Positions 6,220 through 37,566 of a stretch of 48,489 bases of DNA are shown piece after piece. The number at the start of each line of letters is the position of its first letter. Positions within the stretch are counted from its first letter, which is position 1. The DNA is from an uncultured bacterium (GTDB lineage: Bacteria; Patescibacteriota; Minisyncoccia; Phycocordibacterales; UBA9973). The translations under genes and the position numbers were made by a program. Location: assembly GCA_903904195.1 (NCBI GenBank), contig CAIVBM010000033.1, positions 1 to 48,489 on the forward strand, read 5' to 3'. Under the pieces are notes generated by a model that saw only the letters and a list, made by a program, of their open reading frames with translations, was not told the DNA's origin and searched no databases.

Positions 6220-6804
6220 TTATTCTTTAATAACTTCAGCCACAGAAACTTCTTTATTGTTAACAACAGTAGTTTCAGGAATTAATTTTTCATATTTTGA
6301 AGAAATAGGCATAAGAGCTTCCATGACAGCCTTTGCATTGTTCAATTTGTTCTTGCTGTTTGATACTATTTTTCCTGTGACATCTTTCATACCGGATAAT
6401 TTTATTATATCTCGGATTACAGAACCTGCTACAAGTCCACGTCCTTTGTTTGGAAGAAGTTTAACTTTTGAACTTGAGAATTTTGCAGAAAGTTCATGAG
6501 GAATAGACATGGTCTTTGTCAGCTTTAATCTGATCATGTTTTTCTTTGCATTTCTTACTGCTTTGTTGATTGCCAAAGCTGTGTCCCCTGCTTTTCCTAG
6601 GCCTAAACCAACAGAACCTTTTTTATCTCCGGCTACTAAAGCAACACTAAAAGAAAATCTGCGTCCTCCAGCGACGACTCTCGTCACTCTACGAATATTT
6701 AAAATCTTCTGATCAAATTCAGGCTTTACTCGTCCAAAAGATGAACCTCTGCGGTTATTGTTTCTCTTTTGACCTATGCTATTGTTTTCTTTTGATTTAT
6801 CCAT
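6220..6804 (-). CDS. rpsE: 30S ribosomal protein S5
   Basis: RVTRVVAGGRRFSFSVALVAGD and GLGLGKA motifs. Start moved to the ATG at 6804, because the longer ORF to 6867 overlaps rplR. Confidence 0.9.
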   Translation of the reverse strand: MDKSKENNSIGQKRNNNRRGSSFGRVKPEFDQKILNIRRVTRVVAGGRRFSFSVALVAGDKKGSVGLGLGKAGDTALAINKAVRNAKKNMIRLKLTKTMSIPHELSAKFSSSKVKLLPNKGRGLVAGSVIRDIIKLSGMKDVTGKIVSNSKNKLNNAKAVMEALMPISSKYEKLIPETTVVNNKEVSVAEVIKE

Positions 6805-6835
6805 TTTAAATTCGTAATTTTTAATTCGTAATTGT

Positions 6836-7177
6836 TTAAAACTTGAGTCCTCCTGCTCTGGCTTCATCAGCTACTAATTTTATTCTTCCGGTGTATTTGA
6901 ATCCATTACGATCAAAAACAACCTTGTCGATTTTAGCTTTCAAACAAGCCTGACCGATCATCTTGCCTACTTCTTTTGCGCGCTCTGTCTTGGTGCCTTT
7001 AGTCATCTTCATGTCATTTGCTTGAGCTAAAGTTTTCTTTGTGGTGTCATCGATAACCTGAGCGTAGATAAATTTGTTAGAACGAAAAACAGAAAGTCTT
7101 GGGCGTTCTTTGGTGCCACTTATTCTAGACTTGATTTTAGCTTTTAATCTTATTCTTTTTTCTGTTTTTGTTTGCAT
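6836..7177 (-). CDS. rplR: 50S ribosomal protein L18
   Basis: RLSVFRSNKFIYAQVIDD and FDRNGFKYTGRIKLVADEARAGGLKF. Confidence 0.9.
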   Translation of the reverse strand: MQTKTEKRIRLKAKIKSRISGTKERPRLSVFRSNKFIYAQVIDDTTKKTLAQANDMKMTKGTKTERAKEVGKMIGQACLKAKIDKVVFDRNGFKYTGRIKLVADEARAGGLKF

Positions 7178-7201
7178 GTTATTCTTATTCTCTATGTCTT
7201 A

Positions 7202-7735
7202 TTATACTGTTTTCTTACCTTGCTTACGTCTTATAACTTCATTGTCATAACGCATTCCTTTACCCTTATAAGGTTCTGGCTTCTTTAATGCTCGGATGGC
7301 AGCAGTAAAGCTCCCGACTAATTCCTTGTCAATTCCCGAAATAACGATATTGTTCTTGTCTGCTGTAGCAGTGATCGTGTCTGGAATCTTTACAATAACA
7401 GGGTGAGAAAATCCTAAAGCAAAATGAAACTCTTTTCCTTTTACTTCAGACTTGTATCCAACACCTTCTAAAATAAGCTTCTTTGAATATGGAGTTTGAA
7501 CTCCAGCAATCATGTTCTTTATGTGAGAAGCATAAGTACCCCAGAGAGATTTTGAAAATTTATCGTTTCTTTTAATATTTAAAGTTATGACCTTGTCACC
7601 GATAGTGATGGTAATGTCATCTCTGAAAATCTTGGTCAATGTGCCTTTTGGACCAACAATAGTAACAGTAGGGCCATTTTGACTGACTTTTACTCCGACT
7701 GGTATTAATATTTCTTGTTTTCCTATTCTACTCAT
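7202..7735 (-). CDS. rplF: 50S ribosomal protein L6
   Basis: MSRIGKQEILIP, LEGVGYK and PEPYKGKGMRY motifs. Confidence 0.92.
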   Translation of the reverse strand: MSRIGKQEILIPVGVKVSQNGPTVTIVGPKGTLTKIFRDDITITIGDKVITLNIKRNDKFSKSLWGTYASHIKNMIAGVQTPYSKKLILEGVGYKSEVKGKEFHFALGFSHPVIVKIPDTITATADKNNIVISGIDKELVGSFTAAIRALKKPEPYKGKGMRYDNEVIRRKQGKKTV

Positions 7736-7769
7736 ATATTTTATCTAAATTATTTTCACCCAACAAAAT

Positions 7770-8156
7770 CTACCAAATCCTAAATAATGCTTCGCCTCCG
7801 ACTTGTTCTTTGCGAGCATCTCTACCTGATAAAATTCCTTTTGGTGTTGAAAGGACAAGTAAACCAGATCCATTTCTGACTTTGTGAATATCTTTCATCC
7901 CAAAATATACACGTCGTGACTGTTTGGAAATTCTCTCTACTTCAGTAATTTTAGGCTTTTCATCTTTGTAAGAAAGACCTACCTCCAATACAGGTTGATC
8001 CTTTTTGACTTTCTTTGAAATAGTAGAAATGTATCCTTCTTTTTTCAAACATTCCGCTATCGCATTTTTAATTTTAGAATATGGAAAAGACACAGACTCT
8101 TTGCCTGCCAGACTTCCATTCTTCATAACTATTAACATGTTTGAAATTGAATCCAT
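7770..8156 (-). CDS. rpsH: 30S ribosomal protein S8
   Basis: DSISNMLIVMKNG and the C-terminal GGEALFRIW. Start set to the ATG at 8156, just after the rpsN stop. Confidence 0.9.
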   Translation of the reverse strand: MDSISNMLIVMKNGSLAGKESVSFPYSKIKNAIAECLKKEGYISTISKKVKKDQPVLEVGLSYKDEKPKITEVERISKQSRRVYFGMKDIHKVRNGSGLLVLSTPKGILSGRDARKEQVGGEALFRIW

Positions 8157-34245: not shown

Positions 34246-34252
34246 AAAAATG

Positions 34253-34324
34253 GGAGATATGAGAGGATTGCACTCTCGCTAACAGCTCCACAAGCTGCTG
34301 TGCTACTACTACACCAATATCTCC
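34253..34324. other. 72-nt GC-enriched structured element closed by GGAGATAT/ATATCTCC
   Basis: An outer 8-bp stem encloses two 5-bp hairpins (GAGAG..CTCTC and CAGCT..AGCTG). ATG lies on both flanks. Confidence 0.3.
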
Positions 34325-34498: not shown

Positions 34499-34972
34499 TT
34501 ATTTTACAACTTCAGTTTTTTCTTCAGCTGCTACTTCTTCTGCCTCTTCTTGATTAGTTACAGAACGCATTTTACTGCGAACGTCTTTGACTGCTTTTGT
34601 ACGAATATAGTAGAGCTTTGATCTGCGAGCTTTTGACTTCTTGGTTATTTCAATTTTATCTATCATTGGAGAATATAGAGGGAAAATTCTTTCTACACCC
34701 ACACCAGAAGCTATTTTTCTGACTGTAAAAGTAGCACCCATTTCTGTGCCGTGTTTTCTAGCGAGAACGATACCTTCAAAAGCCTGCAATCTGAACTTGT
34801 TTGCCTCAGACTTTTTATCATCTTTCTTTTTCTTGTCTCCTTTTTTCTCGGTTTTTTCTTCTAAAATTTTAGACCAGACGTTTACTGTGTCTCCAGCCTT
34901 AAAATTAAGAGCCTTGCGGGCTTCCATATCTACCGGACTAAACTTTATATTGCTCACTTTATTTCCTGTCAT
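34499..34972 (-). CDS. rplS: 50S ribosomal protein L19 with a Lys-rich internal insertion
   Basis: GDTVNVWSKI, FEGIVLARKHG, TFTVRKIASGVGVERIFPLYSP and RRSKLYYIR. Confidence 0.9.
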   Translation of the reverse strand: MTGNKVSNIKFSPVDMEARKALNFKAGDTVNVWSKILEEKTEKKGDKKKKDDKKSEANKFRLQAFEGIVLARKHGTEMGATFTVRKIASGVGVERIFPLYSPMIDKIEITKKSKARRSKLYYIRTKAVKDVRSKMRSVTNQEEAEEVAAEEKTEVVK

Positions 34973-35020: not shown

Positions 35021-35072
35021 CCTCACCCCTTGCTTTCCCCTCTCCTTGATAAGGAGAGGGGTTGGGGAGAGG
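35021..35072 (-). repeat. GC-rich palindromic element CCTCACCCC...CCCCTCTCCTT-gat-AAGGAGAGGGG..GGGGAGAGG (family copy 2)
   Basis: A perfect 11-bp inner stem plus an outer imperfect stem. It abuts the stop of 35073-36779. Confidence 0.5.
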
Positions 35073-36779
35073 TCAGATGAATTCCTGCTGATAGCAAGTT
35101 TCACAATAGACCGTTTCCGTTCTATCCGGAGCATATGAAGTCCTGATTGCCTTTCCACATTTCATGCAAGTTCTATCATAGAGTTTCGGCATTTGTAATT
35201 TATCAAATCGAGAATTTTCCCGACACCTTAGACATCTGGTTGGCAGAGGCATATTCATTTTTCGCAATAAATCAAACTCAATCGAAGCTATTTTATATTT
35301 TCTGTCGCAAGTAGTACAGGAAATTATTTCTTTTAAGATCGATTCATCGACTTTATTTATAGTTTCCGGTAAATCTTTTCCGGAGATGATAGCATCAGCT
35401 TGCTTTTCCACCTCATCATTCCAAGTATAACCGCCAGCCAGAGCTTCTTCTCTTGTTTTCGTAAAAAATTTACTTGCATTGGAATTATTGTAAGCAAACT
35501 TACTGAAACCGGGGAGGAAAAATTCCCCATATGGCCAAGCTCGTCCGAGTTCGTCTATGTATGGATTCTTTTTCATATCTTCTATTATTTTTTCTTTTAA
35601 TTCTTCATATTCTTTTCTAGAATACTCTTTATTTAAAATACAGTAACTTTTATGTTTCAAATTAATACAGCCAAAATCGTTTTTCGATCCAACACACCAT
35701 AAGGAATATTCAGTGTTTTCAACGCCGACAATACAATCAAGGGAAAATTTAACATTACTTACATCTTCACCAACATTCAAAGATTCATAAATAAGCTCGG
35801 CATTATTTCCCCAACCGGAATAATCCATGCAATCTTTTGCGGGTTTAAAAGTAATAAACTGACAGTATTTGCAATTTTCCGCATGCCCAGCAATATACAT
35901 TTCTTTTGAATTTTTTGATTGATAAACATATTCGCCGGTAACATTCAGATTAAAACTGTCTCCGGTATAAGAACGATACGGAAGTTTTTTCCATAATTTC
36001 TCGGCCTCTTTTTTGAACTCATCTATGCCTGAACGAGTCTCTAATTTTAATTTTTTTAATTTTTCTAAATATCCTTCGCGGGTATACTGAACATTAAAAA
36101 TTTTATAAGAAGAGTCGCGCAAATTTACGCAGCCGATACAATTCATGCACCCATAACAATTGCGAGAAAACCATACGTCACTACAGGAATCGCACTCTTC
36201 CGAATAAAAAGTTCGATAACAACCCCTTCTTAATCCGATTGATTCATAACATAATTCGGAACTGAAAATTCTTAAAGAATCAGCAGTATCTTTGGCCTGA
36301 TTGAGAATAGAAGAATGATAAACATTTTCGCAATAATCCGCCCATATTGCCAGAGTGCAATTTTTTGAATAAGAAATGGCGTTACTATAATCACAATTTT
36401 TTAAATTTAAATAAGTACTTTCGATAGCAGGATAAGGAGTTTTTTCAGATAACTCTTTCCATTGCGTCAAAAAAGGTCGGCTTGCGTCGTAGTCCATAGC
36501 ATATTCTGTACCATCCCAATCATCACCCCACCAGCAAGGCTGACAATAAACCGTAATTTTCTGATGCGATGGATACATAGAAAGAGTGCGTTTTCCGCAC
36601 TTGTCGCAATTGCGATAAAAAAGTGACCAAGCGTTATAGCAAGATAGTCGCCTTATCATCCTGCATTCCGGACACCAAGTGGGTGCTGGAACATTTATTT
36701 TTTCATAAAATTTAAAATCTTCCGGCTCTATTGTGAAATCTTTTTTACAGTTTTGACAGGATTTAGTTAGAGCTTCCAT
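35073..36779 (-). CDS. Cys-rich 568-aa protein with homologous N- and C-terminal four-CxxC (double zinc-ribbon) modules flanking a Cys-rich repeat core
   Basis: The N-terminal module has CQNC..CPEC..CDKC..CQPC and the C-terminal module has CTTC..CLRC..CMKC..CETC. Both share the motifs (P.P..C..CR, LY.R.C..CGK, VYC..C). The central part has NC/GC-rich short repeats. Confidence 0.8.
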   Translation of the reverse strand: MEALTKSCQNCKKDFTIEPEDFKFYEKINVPAPTWCPECRMIRRLSCYNAWSLFYRNCDKCGKRTLSMYPSHQKITVYCQPCWWGDDWDGTEYAMDYDASRPFLTQWKELSEKTPYPAIESTYLNLKNCDYSNAISYSKNCTLAIWADYCENVYHSSILNQAKDTADSLRIFSSELCYESIGLRRGCYRTFYSEECDSCSDVWFSRNCYGCMNCIGCVNLRDSSYKIFNVQYTREGYLEKLKKLKLETRSGIDEFKKEAEKLWKKLPYRSYTGDSFNLNVTGEYVYQSKNSKEMYIAGHAENCKYCQFITFKPAKDCMDYSGWGNNAELIYESLNVGEDVSNVKFSLDCIVGVENTEYSLWCVGSKNDFGCINLKHKSYCILNKEYSRKEYEELKEKIIEDMKKNPYIDELGRAWPYGEFFLPGFSKFAYNNSNASKFFTKTREEALAGGYTWNDEVEKQADAIISGKDLPETINKVDESILKEIISCTTCDRKYKIASIEFDLLRKMNMPLPTRCLRCRENSRFDKLQMPKLYDRTCMKCGKAIRTSYAPDRTETVYCETCYQQEFI

Positions 36780-36783
36780 AATT

Positions 36784-37566
36784 TTATTTTACTATATTTT
36801 TGAATTCTTTTGGAATTGGTGATTCTATTTTTATAGCTTTACCCTTTAAATCTCTAAATTCTATTGAGTTTGCATGCAATGCCATACGAGACAACCCTTT
36901 TGGACAAGCACCATTTGGATTATAAAGAGAATCACAAATCACAGGATGATTTAAGAATTTCATATGCACGCGGATCTGGTGAGTCCGGCCGGTTTTAGGA
37001 CTGATTTCTATAAAAGTAAATTTTCTAAGCGAAGGCTTGTGAAAATTTTTATCTCCGAGGGTCCCACCGCGTACTCGCGGAAGGGCGCAGGAGGAAAAAT
37101 TTTCACAAGCCGAAGCGTTAAATCTTTTTAAAACTTTATATTGAGTTATGGCTTCACGAATTTCCCCCCGCACACCACGACCCGCTAAATATCTGCGGAA
37201 ATCTTTTGGACTTCGTCCAATGGGTTTATTTATTACTCCCCTATCAAATTTTACCCAACCATCCACAAGGGCGACATATACCTTTTTCATTTCCCTATTT
37301 TGAAATAGGCTTTTTAAAAATTCATATGATTTTTGGTTTTTTGCCAAAAGTAATACTCCAGAAGTATCACGATCTAATCTGTGTACGATGCCAGGTCGCA
37401 GTATTTCCCCCATCGGCTCACCGACATTTTTCATCTTTGGATAATTTTTTAATATCCAATCAGTAATAGTCTTTTCTTTACTCCTTCCATCTCCATGCAC
37501 CGAAATACCTGAAGGCTTTTCTATGGCTAAGATATCTTTATCTTCATATAATATTTTTATTTTCAT
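36784..37566 (-). CDS. rluD: RluA-family 23S rRNA/tRNA pseudouridine synthase (RluD-like) carrying a 27-codon in-frame insertion
   Basis: HRLDRDTSGVLLLAKN catalytic Asp motif and KTGRTHQIRVH. Confidence 0.85.
   Translation of the reverse strand: MKIKILYEDKDILAIEKPSGISVHGDGRSKEKTITDWILKNYPKMKNVGEPMGEILRPGIVHRLDRDTSGVLLLAKNQKSYEFLKSLFQNREMKKVYVALVDGWVKFDRGVINKPIGRSPKDFRRYLAGRGVRGEIREAITQYKVLKRFNASACENFSSCALPRVRGGTLGDKNFHKPSLRKFTFIEISPKTGRTHQIRVHMKFLNHPVICDSLYNPNGACPKGLSRMALHANSIEFRDLKGKAIKIESPIPKEFKNIVK
37035..37110. mobile_element. 76-bp MITE-like element with 16-bp perfect terminal inverted repeats and a 5-bp direct duplication, inside rluD
   Basis: The TIR is GCTTGTGAAAATTTTT (37035-37050) paired with AAAAATTTTCACAAGC (37095-37110). 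CGAAG flanks both sides at 37030-37034 and 37111-37115. The core is GC-rich and contains CCGCGTACTCGCGG. Confidence 0.65.

Follow-up and report, generated by a model that had tools for sequence, protein, structure and literature searches.

A Patescibacteria family of zinc-ribbon and solenoid proteins and its recurrent VirD4/TrwB-like ATPase neighbor

Contig CAIVBM010000033.1 (48,489 nucleotides [nt]; here called the window) belongs to the genome of an uncultured member of the Patescibacteria (assembly GCA_903904195.1; here G000). An earlier note, made from the sequence by a model, had described a Cys-rich open reading frame (ORF) at positions 35073 to 36779, and this ORF is indeed present and intact on the minus strand, with an ATG start. 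Its product of 568 amino acids (aa), P0001, represents one orthogroup of a multicopy family. Our best reading of the genome comparisons is that a mostly soluble VirD4/TrwB-like ATPase of the HerA-FtsK superfamily is the ancestral and most conserved genomic partner of this family. We tentatively favor, at not quite an even chance, the view that P0001 is a zinc-stabilized solenoid scaffold whose function is tied to this orphan type IV coupling protein (T4CP)-like ATPase, which it would bind. The family appears to be undescribed: the literature search found neither the family nor the ATPase link, though papers or supplements beyond that search may hold one. In the following, labels beginning with G, L, P, and C denote the genomes, loci, proteins, and contigs analyzed, and X stands for a homolog of P0001.

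Proximity of the family to a coupling protein-like ATPase

The recurrent neighbor of the family genes matched T4SS-DNA_transf, TrwB_AAD_bind, DUF87 (HerA), and TraG-D_C. By coordinate comparison, a family copy lies less than 600 nt from the gene of a 700-aa ATPase in 15 of 19 genomes of the genus. Two of the four exceptions are fragmented assemblies, one has dnaK between the two genes, and one (G018) has no full-length copy. G002, G016, and G017, with just one or two family matches each, have kept a copy inside the ATPase/dnaK cluster; G002 (one match) and G016 (two matches) are among the 15. The association extends beyond the genus: of 17 family-bearing genomes that represent 11 other GTDB families, 12 had a copy at most 2 kb from an ATPase match, while 2.9 were expected (P ~3e-7) under a random-placement null that is generous and treats every copy as independent, though the genomes are not all independent. 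Furthermore, species-representative genomes were scanned phylum-wide with a core-only relative as the seed, and 30 of the 55 loci obtained had an ATPase within the fetched ±6 kb. These loci were labeled as Microgenomates, Daviesbacteria, Levyibacteria, Saccharimonadales, Peribacteria, Gracilibacteria, Paceibacterota, and others, and some as Gammaproteobacteria.

In G000, the cluster begins with grpE, X, X, X, a PaaX-like gene, dnaK, a PsbP-like gene, and the 700-aa ATPase gene, and continues with X, X, rsmE, a second ATPase gene, and dnaJ. In this genus, two VirD4/TrwB-like ATPase genes stand inside the grpE-dnaK-dnaJ cluster (L036, G000:C29 4746-16361; also L038, L048, and L049), in G018 as well. 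The family copies cut at the end of C26 and the start of C29 (L036 and L037) are 97% identical in their overlap, and the two contigs probably join; a ribosomal-protein cluster and grpE would then stand directly upstream of the array. Since these two matches are the ends of one gene, the nine matches in G000 (679 kb in 54 contigs) are read as eight genes, mutually 36 to 49% identical.

At the loci nearest to the core-only seed, in Microgenomates-type genomes, the family occurs in a split form. A 105- to 106-aa gene with zf_Tbcl and zf_Tbcl_2 units is followed by a 306- to 307-aa core-only gene, the start of which is overlapped or abutted by the stop of the first gene, and a 735- to 768-aa ATPase gene is convergent with the core gene, within a few bases. 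The split zinc-ribbon homolog passed the zf_Tbcl cutoff (32.5 versus 24 bits). As Rosetta-stone evidence, this arrangement shows ribbon module and core to be working jointly, and it shows that the trio predates the fused, amplified form of the Paceibacteria. Moreover, the one-to-one conservation of the split cassette favors a fixed partner, and the arrays of divergent paralogs, with solenoid positions that are variable among them, favor diversified specificity. Contigs labeled "uncultured Gammaproteobacteria" (L094, L095, L097, L100, L101, L103, and L123) also carry the split cassette typical of Patescibacteria; possibly these labels stem from wrong binning, but the family may instead extend beyond the phylum.

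The 700-aa ATPase of G000 (P0273) has a CxxC-x17-CxxC ribbon of its own at residues 451 to 483 (zf_Tbcl_2, E value of 8.5e-11), after which comes a long tail, seemingly rich in Pro, Ser, Lys, and Thr, that matched no Pfam family. A 750-aa ATPase type has a 330-aa N-terminal domain for which there is no Pfam family. Large Bacillus phages carry relatives of this type, including part of the N-terminal domain. One of them is gp156 of phage G (L149, 90859-93336), which adjoins gp155, annotated as VirB-like, and another is SPO1 gp27.4; their PHROGs family, phrog_5156, is of unknown function. G000 additionally encodes FtsK and a VirB4-like ATPase (P-loop_TraG plus AAA_10), found among large ORFs without a Pfam family, whose locus (L091) may be this genome's type IV secretion system (T4SS) locus. 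A complex prediction for residues 17 to 430 of the G000 ATPase with the adjacent paralog gave a score of 0.00; it was run without controls and weighs neither way.

With its TrwB_AAD_bind, T4SS-DNA_transf, and TraG-D_C matches, the neighboring ATPase resembles the T4CPs VirD4 and TrwB, which work with substrates and adaptors. Paralog arrays beside a coupling-protein gene resemble effector loci. Unlike T4CPs, most of the family-linked ATPases lack a membrane anchor: an N-terminal transmembrane-like window was detected in just 2 of 17. Unlike T4SS substrates and adaptors, the family showed no known T4SS signal or adaptor domain in Pfam and PADLOC. A survey of Patescibacteria reports 5,713 VirD4-type homologs in 2,918 genomes and places just 148 of them near virB4, again in contrast to T4CPs (PMC12102498). 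The same source describes the Southlakia VirD4-type homolog as not essential for epibiotic growth, and its authors raise exaptation of the T4CP homologs of Patescibacteria as possible (PMC12102498).

The ATPase was found in all 21 genomes of the genus and in all 17 genomes from other families that were searched. A defense system was considered and rejected on this distribution and on the absence of a PADLOC match.

Zinc-ribbon ends and a solenoid core

P0001 contains 35 Cys residues (6.2%), while the genome median is 0.65% for ORFs of at least 150 aa. Many of them stand in four CxxC pairs at either end of the protein, beginning at residues 8, 36, 58, and 79 and at residues 488, 516, 538, and 559. 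The earlier note had proposed that the two end segments are homologous, and this was borne out: residues 7 to 83 and 487 to 563 align without gaps at 35% identity (E value of 8e-18), and a profile-profile comparison of the two modules gave a probability of 99.8 (E value of 4e-29). Either module consists of two units in tandem, one zf_Tbcl-like and one of the CxxC-x17-CxxC type (zf_Tbcl_2/TIGR04272). Site N1 (C8/C11/C36/C39) is zf_Tbcl-like and site N2 (C58/C61/C79/C82) zf_Tbcl_2-like, and the corresponding sites at the other end are C1 (C488/C491/C516/C519) and C2 (C538/C541/C559/C562). The x17 spacing is present in both modules (C58-x2-C61-x17-C79-x2-C82 and C538-x2-C541-x17-C559-x2-C562). 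Among 51 family members, Cys conservation was 92 to 98% at N1 and C2, 76 to 98% at C1, and 59 to 84% at N2.

P0001 itself scored below the curated cutoffs of PF13451, PF23477, and TIGR04272 (25.8 versus 27, 15.3 versus 24, and 20.4 versus 36 bits), and the two zinc-finger Pfam families matched 31 and 18 of the 51 members at an E value of ≤0.1. The closest known relatives of the ends are the small zf_Tbcl/zf_Tbcl_2 proteins, the known members of which have no assigned function. P0001 shares with them both treble-clef/zinc-ribbon units, here in tandem, and the x17 spacing, and it differs from them in having the module twice and joined to a 380-aa core. Small CxxC-x17-CxxC proteins of Methanosarcina mazei are reported to bind zinc, as determined by inductively coupled plasma mass spectrometry (PMC12704099). 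From the motifs and the likeness to these proteins, we infer that the end modules of P0001 bind zinc.

Between the modules, the repetitive Cys- and Asn-containing core that the earlier note had likened to a solenoid proved real and more ordered than described, with an internal duplication and a 12-residue period. Its halves (residues ~132 to 244 and ~282 to 398) are homologous, with an hhalign probability of 99.85 and an E value of 1e-30. If the sequence of P0001 is laid out in rows of 12, a Cys/Ser/Asn ladder aligns. In line with this, AlphaFold2 placed strands 12 residues apart, at 164/176/188/200/212/224 and at 354/366/378. The full-length model, built from 51 sequences, had a predicted local distance difference test (pLDDT) score of 84 and a predicted template modeling score of 0.85; the pLDDT of a core model (residues 95 to 470; 145 sequences) was 83. 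Both halves close with FGC..L..K.Y.I.N.QY..E.Y followed by a helix, and the end of half A contains C-x2-C-x2-C-x2-C at residues 208 to 217 and the cap motif NLR..Y.IFN.QY. The split, core-only forms do not have the connector that joins the second solenoid to the C-terminal module.

Overall, P0001 has a near-neutral isoelectric point (pI) of 6.3, with acidic values for the connector and for both solenoids and a basic one (pI of 9.0) for the C-terminal module. P0001 has no signal peptide, and no transmembrane-like window or hydrophobic segment was detected in it. It is best read, from its sequence, as a cytoplasmic structural protein.

No Pfam family (51 members scanned), NCBIfam, PADLOC, or Protein Data Bank (PDB) family matched the core. 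A PDB sequence search with P0001 and the split zinc-ribbon protein returned nothing under an E value of 0.07, and the only matches were to LIM domains that resemble one of the ribbons. Neither P0001 nor the one paralog tried had a family in PADLOC. In PHROGs, P0001 again matched no family, and P0370, a core-only relative, matched phrog_15341, of unknown function (E value of 3.5e-18). In the ESM Atlas, only unnamed Patescibacteria and Peregrinibacteria clusters were found. The Foldseek check that the earlier note had suggested was run on the full and core models against the PDB and gave no match at an E value of ≤1e-3, the best being at least 0.018. Its statement that no catalytic motif is recognizable also stands: no catalytic family was recognized in Pfam or NCBIfam.

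An exhaustive VIA search with the core model gave only Z scores of ≤5.5, a range that may mean just a common arrangement. The top neighbor was the ryegrass (Lolium perenne) ice-binding protein 3ult (Z of 5.5, root mean square deviation [rmsd] of 2.7, 102 residues aligned), followed by the spruce budworm antifreeze protein (AFP) 1m8n (Z of 4.9), hexapeptide acyltransferases (Z of ~4.7), and the Tenebrio AFP 1ezg (Z of 4.5, rmsd of 8.0, 76 residues aligned). The repeat of the Tenebrio AFP is 12 residues long, and its coils, like those modeled for P0001, have Cys inside. These narrow ice-binding solenoids are the nearest structural neighbors of the core, yet they share only 8 to 10% sequence identity with it within this weak Z range, the coils of P0001 show no regular Thr-x-Thr face when examined in 12-residue rows, and the setting of P0001 would be cytoplasmic and flanked by zinc ribbons. 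To the left-handed beta-helix (LbH) hexapeptide acyltransferases and gamma-carbonic anhydrases the resemblance is that of solenoids in general; unlike them, P0001 has a modeled coil period of 12, no Pfam hexapeptide match, and no significant fold score. In the models, the core is a narrow beta-solenoid of no recognized family.

Gene surroundings and distribution of the family

The features discussed here are listed in Table 1.

Table 1. Positions of P0001, its segments, its neighbors, and two ATPase genes of G000 (positions in the window unless a locus is given)
Feature	Position	Strand	Remarks
P0001, whole ORF	35073..36779	-	568 aa plus stop, ATG start; one orthogroup of a multicopy Patescibacteria family
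N-terminal double zinc-ribbon module, residues 1-95	36495..36779	-	putative sites N1 and N2
Helical linker, conserved, residues 96-120	36420..36494	-	D98, F103, Q106, L110, and P115 invariant or nearly so
Solenoid half A and capping helices, residues 121-268	35976..36419	-	12-residue coils, Cys/Ser/Asn ladder
Solenoid half B and capping helix, residues 269-405	35565..35975	-	homologous to half A
Conserved connector, residues 406-480	35340..35564	-	consensus YGEFFP...SPF.YNET.A..YFP
C-terminal double zinc-ribbon module, residues 481-568	35076..35339	-	putative sites C1 and C2
RluA-family pseudouridine synthase, 260 aa (upstream neighbor)	36784..37566	-	profile match
Hairpin, 10 bp, G+C rich	35037..35061	-	read from sequence
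rplS, ribosomal protein L19 (downstream neighbor)	34499..34972	-	profile match
tRNA-His	34252-34323	-	downstream of rplS, after tRNA-Leu
P0273, 700-aa ATPase of G000	L036 7562-9661	+	carries its own zf_Tbcl_2 ribbon
VirB4-like ATPase (P-loop_TraG plus AAA_10)	L091 (G000:C50) 6304-8145	-	among large ORFs without a Pfam family

The window is AT rich (GC of 0.31 to 0.44), and the P0001 gene stands in a dense minus-strand run of housekeeping genes in the order tRNA-Val, tRNA-Arg, RluA-family synthase, P0001, rplS, tRNA-Leu, and tRNA-His. The earlier note had given this context correctly as far as it went, leaving tRNA-His unmentioned. It had also placed the start of the gene 5 nt after rluD. A close upstream gene is there, at a distance of four bases from its stop to the ATG rather than five, and it belongs to the RluA family without passing the RluD equivalog model (124.6 versus a cutoff of 351 bits); it passed the TIGR00005 RluA-subfamily model with 197.7 bits (cutoff, 192.7 bits). 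The synthase aligns from position 73 of that model and seems to be without an N-terminal S4-like part. The hairpin in the table, with arms CCCCTCTCCT and AGGAGAGGGG and a 5-nt loop, begins 11 nt past the P0001 stop, ahead of rplS; it has no T tail, and a terminator scan made no call there.

At nine ortholog loci in the genus, rplS was found in eight (the ninth locus ends just past the gene) and the RluA-family gene in six; the other three have another paralog upstream. At the 55 family loci across Patescibacteria, neither an RluA-family synthase nor rplS was present at any. The linkage to rluD whose conservation the earlier note had wanted checked is therefore kept within one orthogroup of the genus and was not seen at the 55 loci from elsewhere. 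This is an outcome that the earlier note itself had named as refuting, and the RNA-related role that it had drawn from the context is not supported. The site of P0001 between the RluA-family gene and rplS is best read as a secondary, genus-specific location of this orthogroup. The seven other paralogs of G000 sit elsewhere in the genome, and copies outside the ATPase/dnaK cluster adjoin purine and cell-wall genes.

In a quick maximum-likelihood tree of 48 copies, old orthogroups common to species of the genus were recovered; a careful tree search was left unfinished, and support was by Shimodaira-Hasegawa-like approximate likelihood ratio test only. The rplS-linked copies formed one clade (98) nested in the family, and their sister (99) was the ATPase-adjacent single copy of G002.

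The family is large. In a word-index search, 2736 of 8000 candidates scored as relatives; the matches listed, 120 in number, were 60 to 79% identical to P0001, were all named hypothetical, and came from Paceibacterota, Nomurabacteria, and Minisyncoccia. By exhaustive search, 3560 representative clusters were found at an E value of ≤1e-3, including 1267 at ≤1e-30. As seen so far in these sequence collections, the family is almost confined to Patescibacteria. Each of the 18 other genomes of the genus contained it, the number of matches per genome ranging from 1 to 26, many in tandem. In 12 genomes representing as many other families of the order, no match was found at an E value of ≤1e-10. Matches were found in 51 of 401 genomes of the phylum, 21 of them with long matches and 30 with just a small free-standing double zinc-ribbon gene. 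One such protein, of 92 aa, scored 61 and 57 bits; the small gene matches the terminal module only. The small gene was examined at L020 to L035 in many Patescibacteria, and its neighbors there, judged by eye, are presumably ribosomal-protein-like (L28 and L7/L12) and DNA polymerase III delta-prime-like genes.

As to forms that differ in length, one longer protein of 1114 aa was found; among the shorter ones, contig fragments predominated, and about eight were core-only proteins of ~300 aa. A metagenomic relative of 731 aa (P0208) has an N-terminal GNAT acetyltransferase domain at residues 42 to 140, a single case that could be a gene-call fusion. In IMG/VR, peptide patterns of P0001 retrieved no relative, and seven motif matches had no tblastn match to the family or the ATPase. 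A phage collection yielded one weak match, of a solenoid half to a small hypothetical protein of Flavobacterium phage FL-1 (L148, 26614-26985; E value of 1e-4).

Possible roles and their weighing

In the role that we favor, the zinc ribbons and the solenoid core would form one rigid unit. This unit would dock on the ATPase, or be handled by it, as a specificity adaptor, regulator, or client, and variable solenoid surfaces, diversified among the paralogs, would supply specificity. Both a physical tie to the ATPase and a function as adaptor or client are our inference.

Several observations weigh against this role. No ATPase was near a copy in 5 of the 17 genomes from other families and at 25 of the 55 loci, and P0001, one of eight copies, is not itself beside one. 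G018 has both ATPases and no full-length family copy, which shows that the ATPase can do without the protein. The ATPase gene of the split cassette is convergent and thus not cotranscribed. Synteny in the genus is shared by descent, and the samples of 17 genomes and 55 loci include related genomes. Regarding the structure, the first coils of each solenoid (including residues 121 to 200) were modeled at a pLDDT of only ~56 to 72. Furthermore, single solenoid Cys residues are swapped for Ser, Val, or Leu among the 51 relatives; they are therefore read as core packing, and this free exchange argues against obligatory metal or Fe-S sites in the solenoid, an idea that was dropped.

The same gene arrangement would suit translocated cargo. 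The paralogs would then be effectors that the T4CP-like ATPase passes to the Patescibacteria T4SS and into host cells, with the conserved zinc-ribbon ends as the recognition signal. The tandem arrays of divergent paralogs next to the ATPase are consistent with this, and in Bartonella, bep arrays sit beside virD4. The absence of a signal peptide or transmembrane segment from P0001, its basic C-terminal module, and the VirB4-like ATPase encoded in G000 also fit. However, 15 of the 17 neighboring ATPases have no N-terminal membrane anchor, unlike canonical coupling proteins, and the single-copy split cassette, conserved across classes, looks less like a variable set of effectors than like a partnership that is fixed. 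Zinc-locked rigid folds are, in addition, poor substrates for unfolding. In the Patescibacteria survey, relaxases are described as rare in the phylum and roles other than conjugation as likely, which speaks for cargo, but the ATPase genes are mostly far from virB4, which speaks against it (PMC12102498). On balance, we hold a cargo function to be improbable. We judge as similarly doubtful a nucleic-acid partner, in which the ribbons would bind DNA or RNA and present it to a translocase of the HerA/FtsK/TrwB type, perhaps when DNA is taken up or processed, and the solenoid would be a spacer or clamp. Treble-clef and zinc-ribbon domains are often nucleic-acid binders, and the basic C-terminal module and the TrwB_AAD_bind, T4SS-DNA_transf, and DUF87/HerA matches of the ATPase point the same way; the near-neutral charge of the whole protein, with its acidic solenoids and connector, does not. 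Nor was any known DNA- or RNA-binding family matched in Pfam or NCBIfam, and up to 26 paralogs per genome are hard to square with a general DNA-handling factor.

For a factor that binds or modifies tRNA or rRNA together with the neighboring pseudouridine synthase and L19, the case rests on the immediate surroundings: the four-base gap, the strand shared with the tRNAs and rplS, and the gene order kept at most ortholog loci in the genus. At the 55 loci from across the phylum both neighbors are missing, and even among the ortholog loci a paralog takes the synthase's place at three of nine. Moreover, the rplS-linked clade is nested within the family with an ATPase-adjacent copy as its sister, and genomes of the genus with one or two matches have retained the copy of the ATPase/dnaK cluster instead of the rplS-linked one. 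We consider such a role very unlikely and leave it a small probability because the orthogroup is strikingly conserved, as judged from the identities among the 120 matches listed, and tightly packed against the synthase gene. A beta-helix enzyme, such as a hexapeptide-type acyltransferase or a gamma-carbonic-anhydrase-like protein, seems hardly credible. LbH acyltransferases and gamma-carbonic anhydrases do occur among the weak structural neighbors, and the relative P0208 has its GNAT domain. All the matches are weak, however, both in Foldseek and in VIA, where the hexapeptide enzymes reach a Z of ≤4.7 and values below 8 may reflect a common arrangement. No hexapeptide family was among the 22 Pfam families matched by the 51 members, the modeled coil period is 12 and not 18, and P0001 contains just 4 His residues.

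Returning to the ATPase-linked scaffold, a wider version of it is conceivable, and we regard it as unlikely: together with its split form and the orphan VirD4-like ATPase, the family would be a previously unrecognized three-part machine of the Patescibacteria, in which the diversified paralogs are interchangeable specificity adaptors or the long-missing protein substrates and the ATPase feeds a T4SS. If this were true, the ATPase would feed the T4SS that epibionts need for life on their hosts, and the 1 to 26 copies per genome would reflect host-range adaptation.

Patescibacteria account for a large share of bacterial diversity and have tiny genomes. G000, with ~0.68 Mb, devotes ~2% of its DNA to its eight gene copies, and one relative has 26 matches. 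The split cassette, which is simpler, may occur in some cultivable lineages of the Saccharibacteria type. What orphan T4CP-like ATPases do is left open where the Patescibacteria survey treats them (PMC12102498), and the link described here would give these ATPases their first candidate partner.

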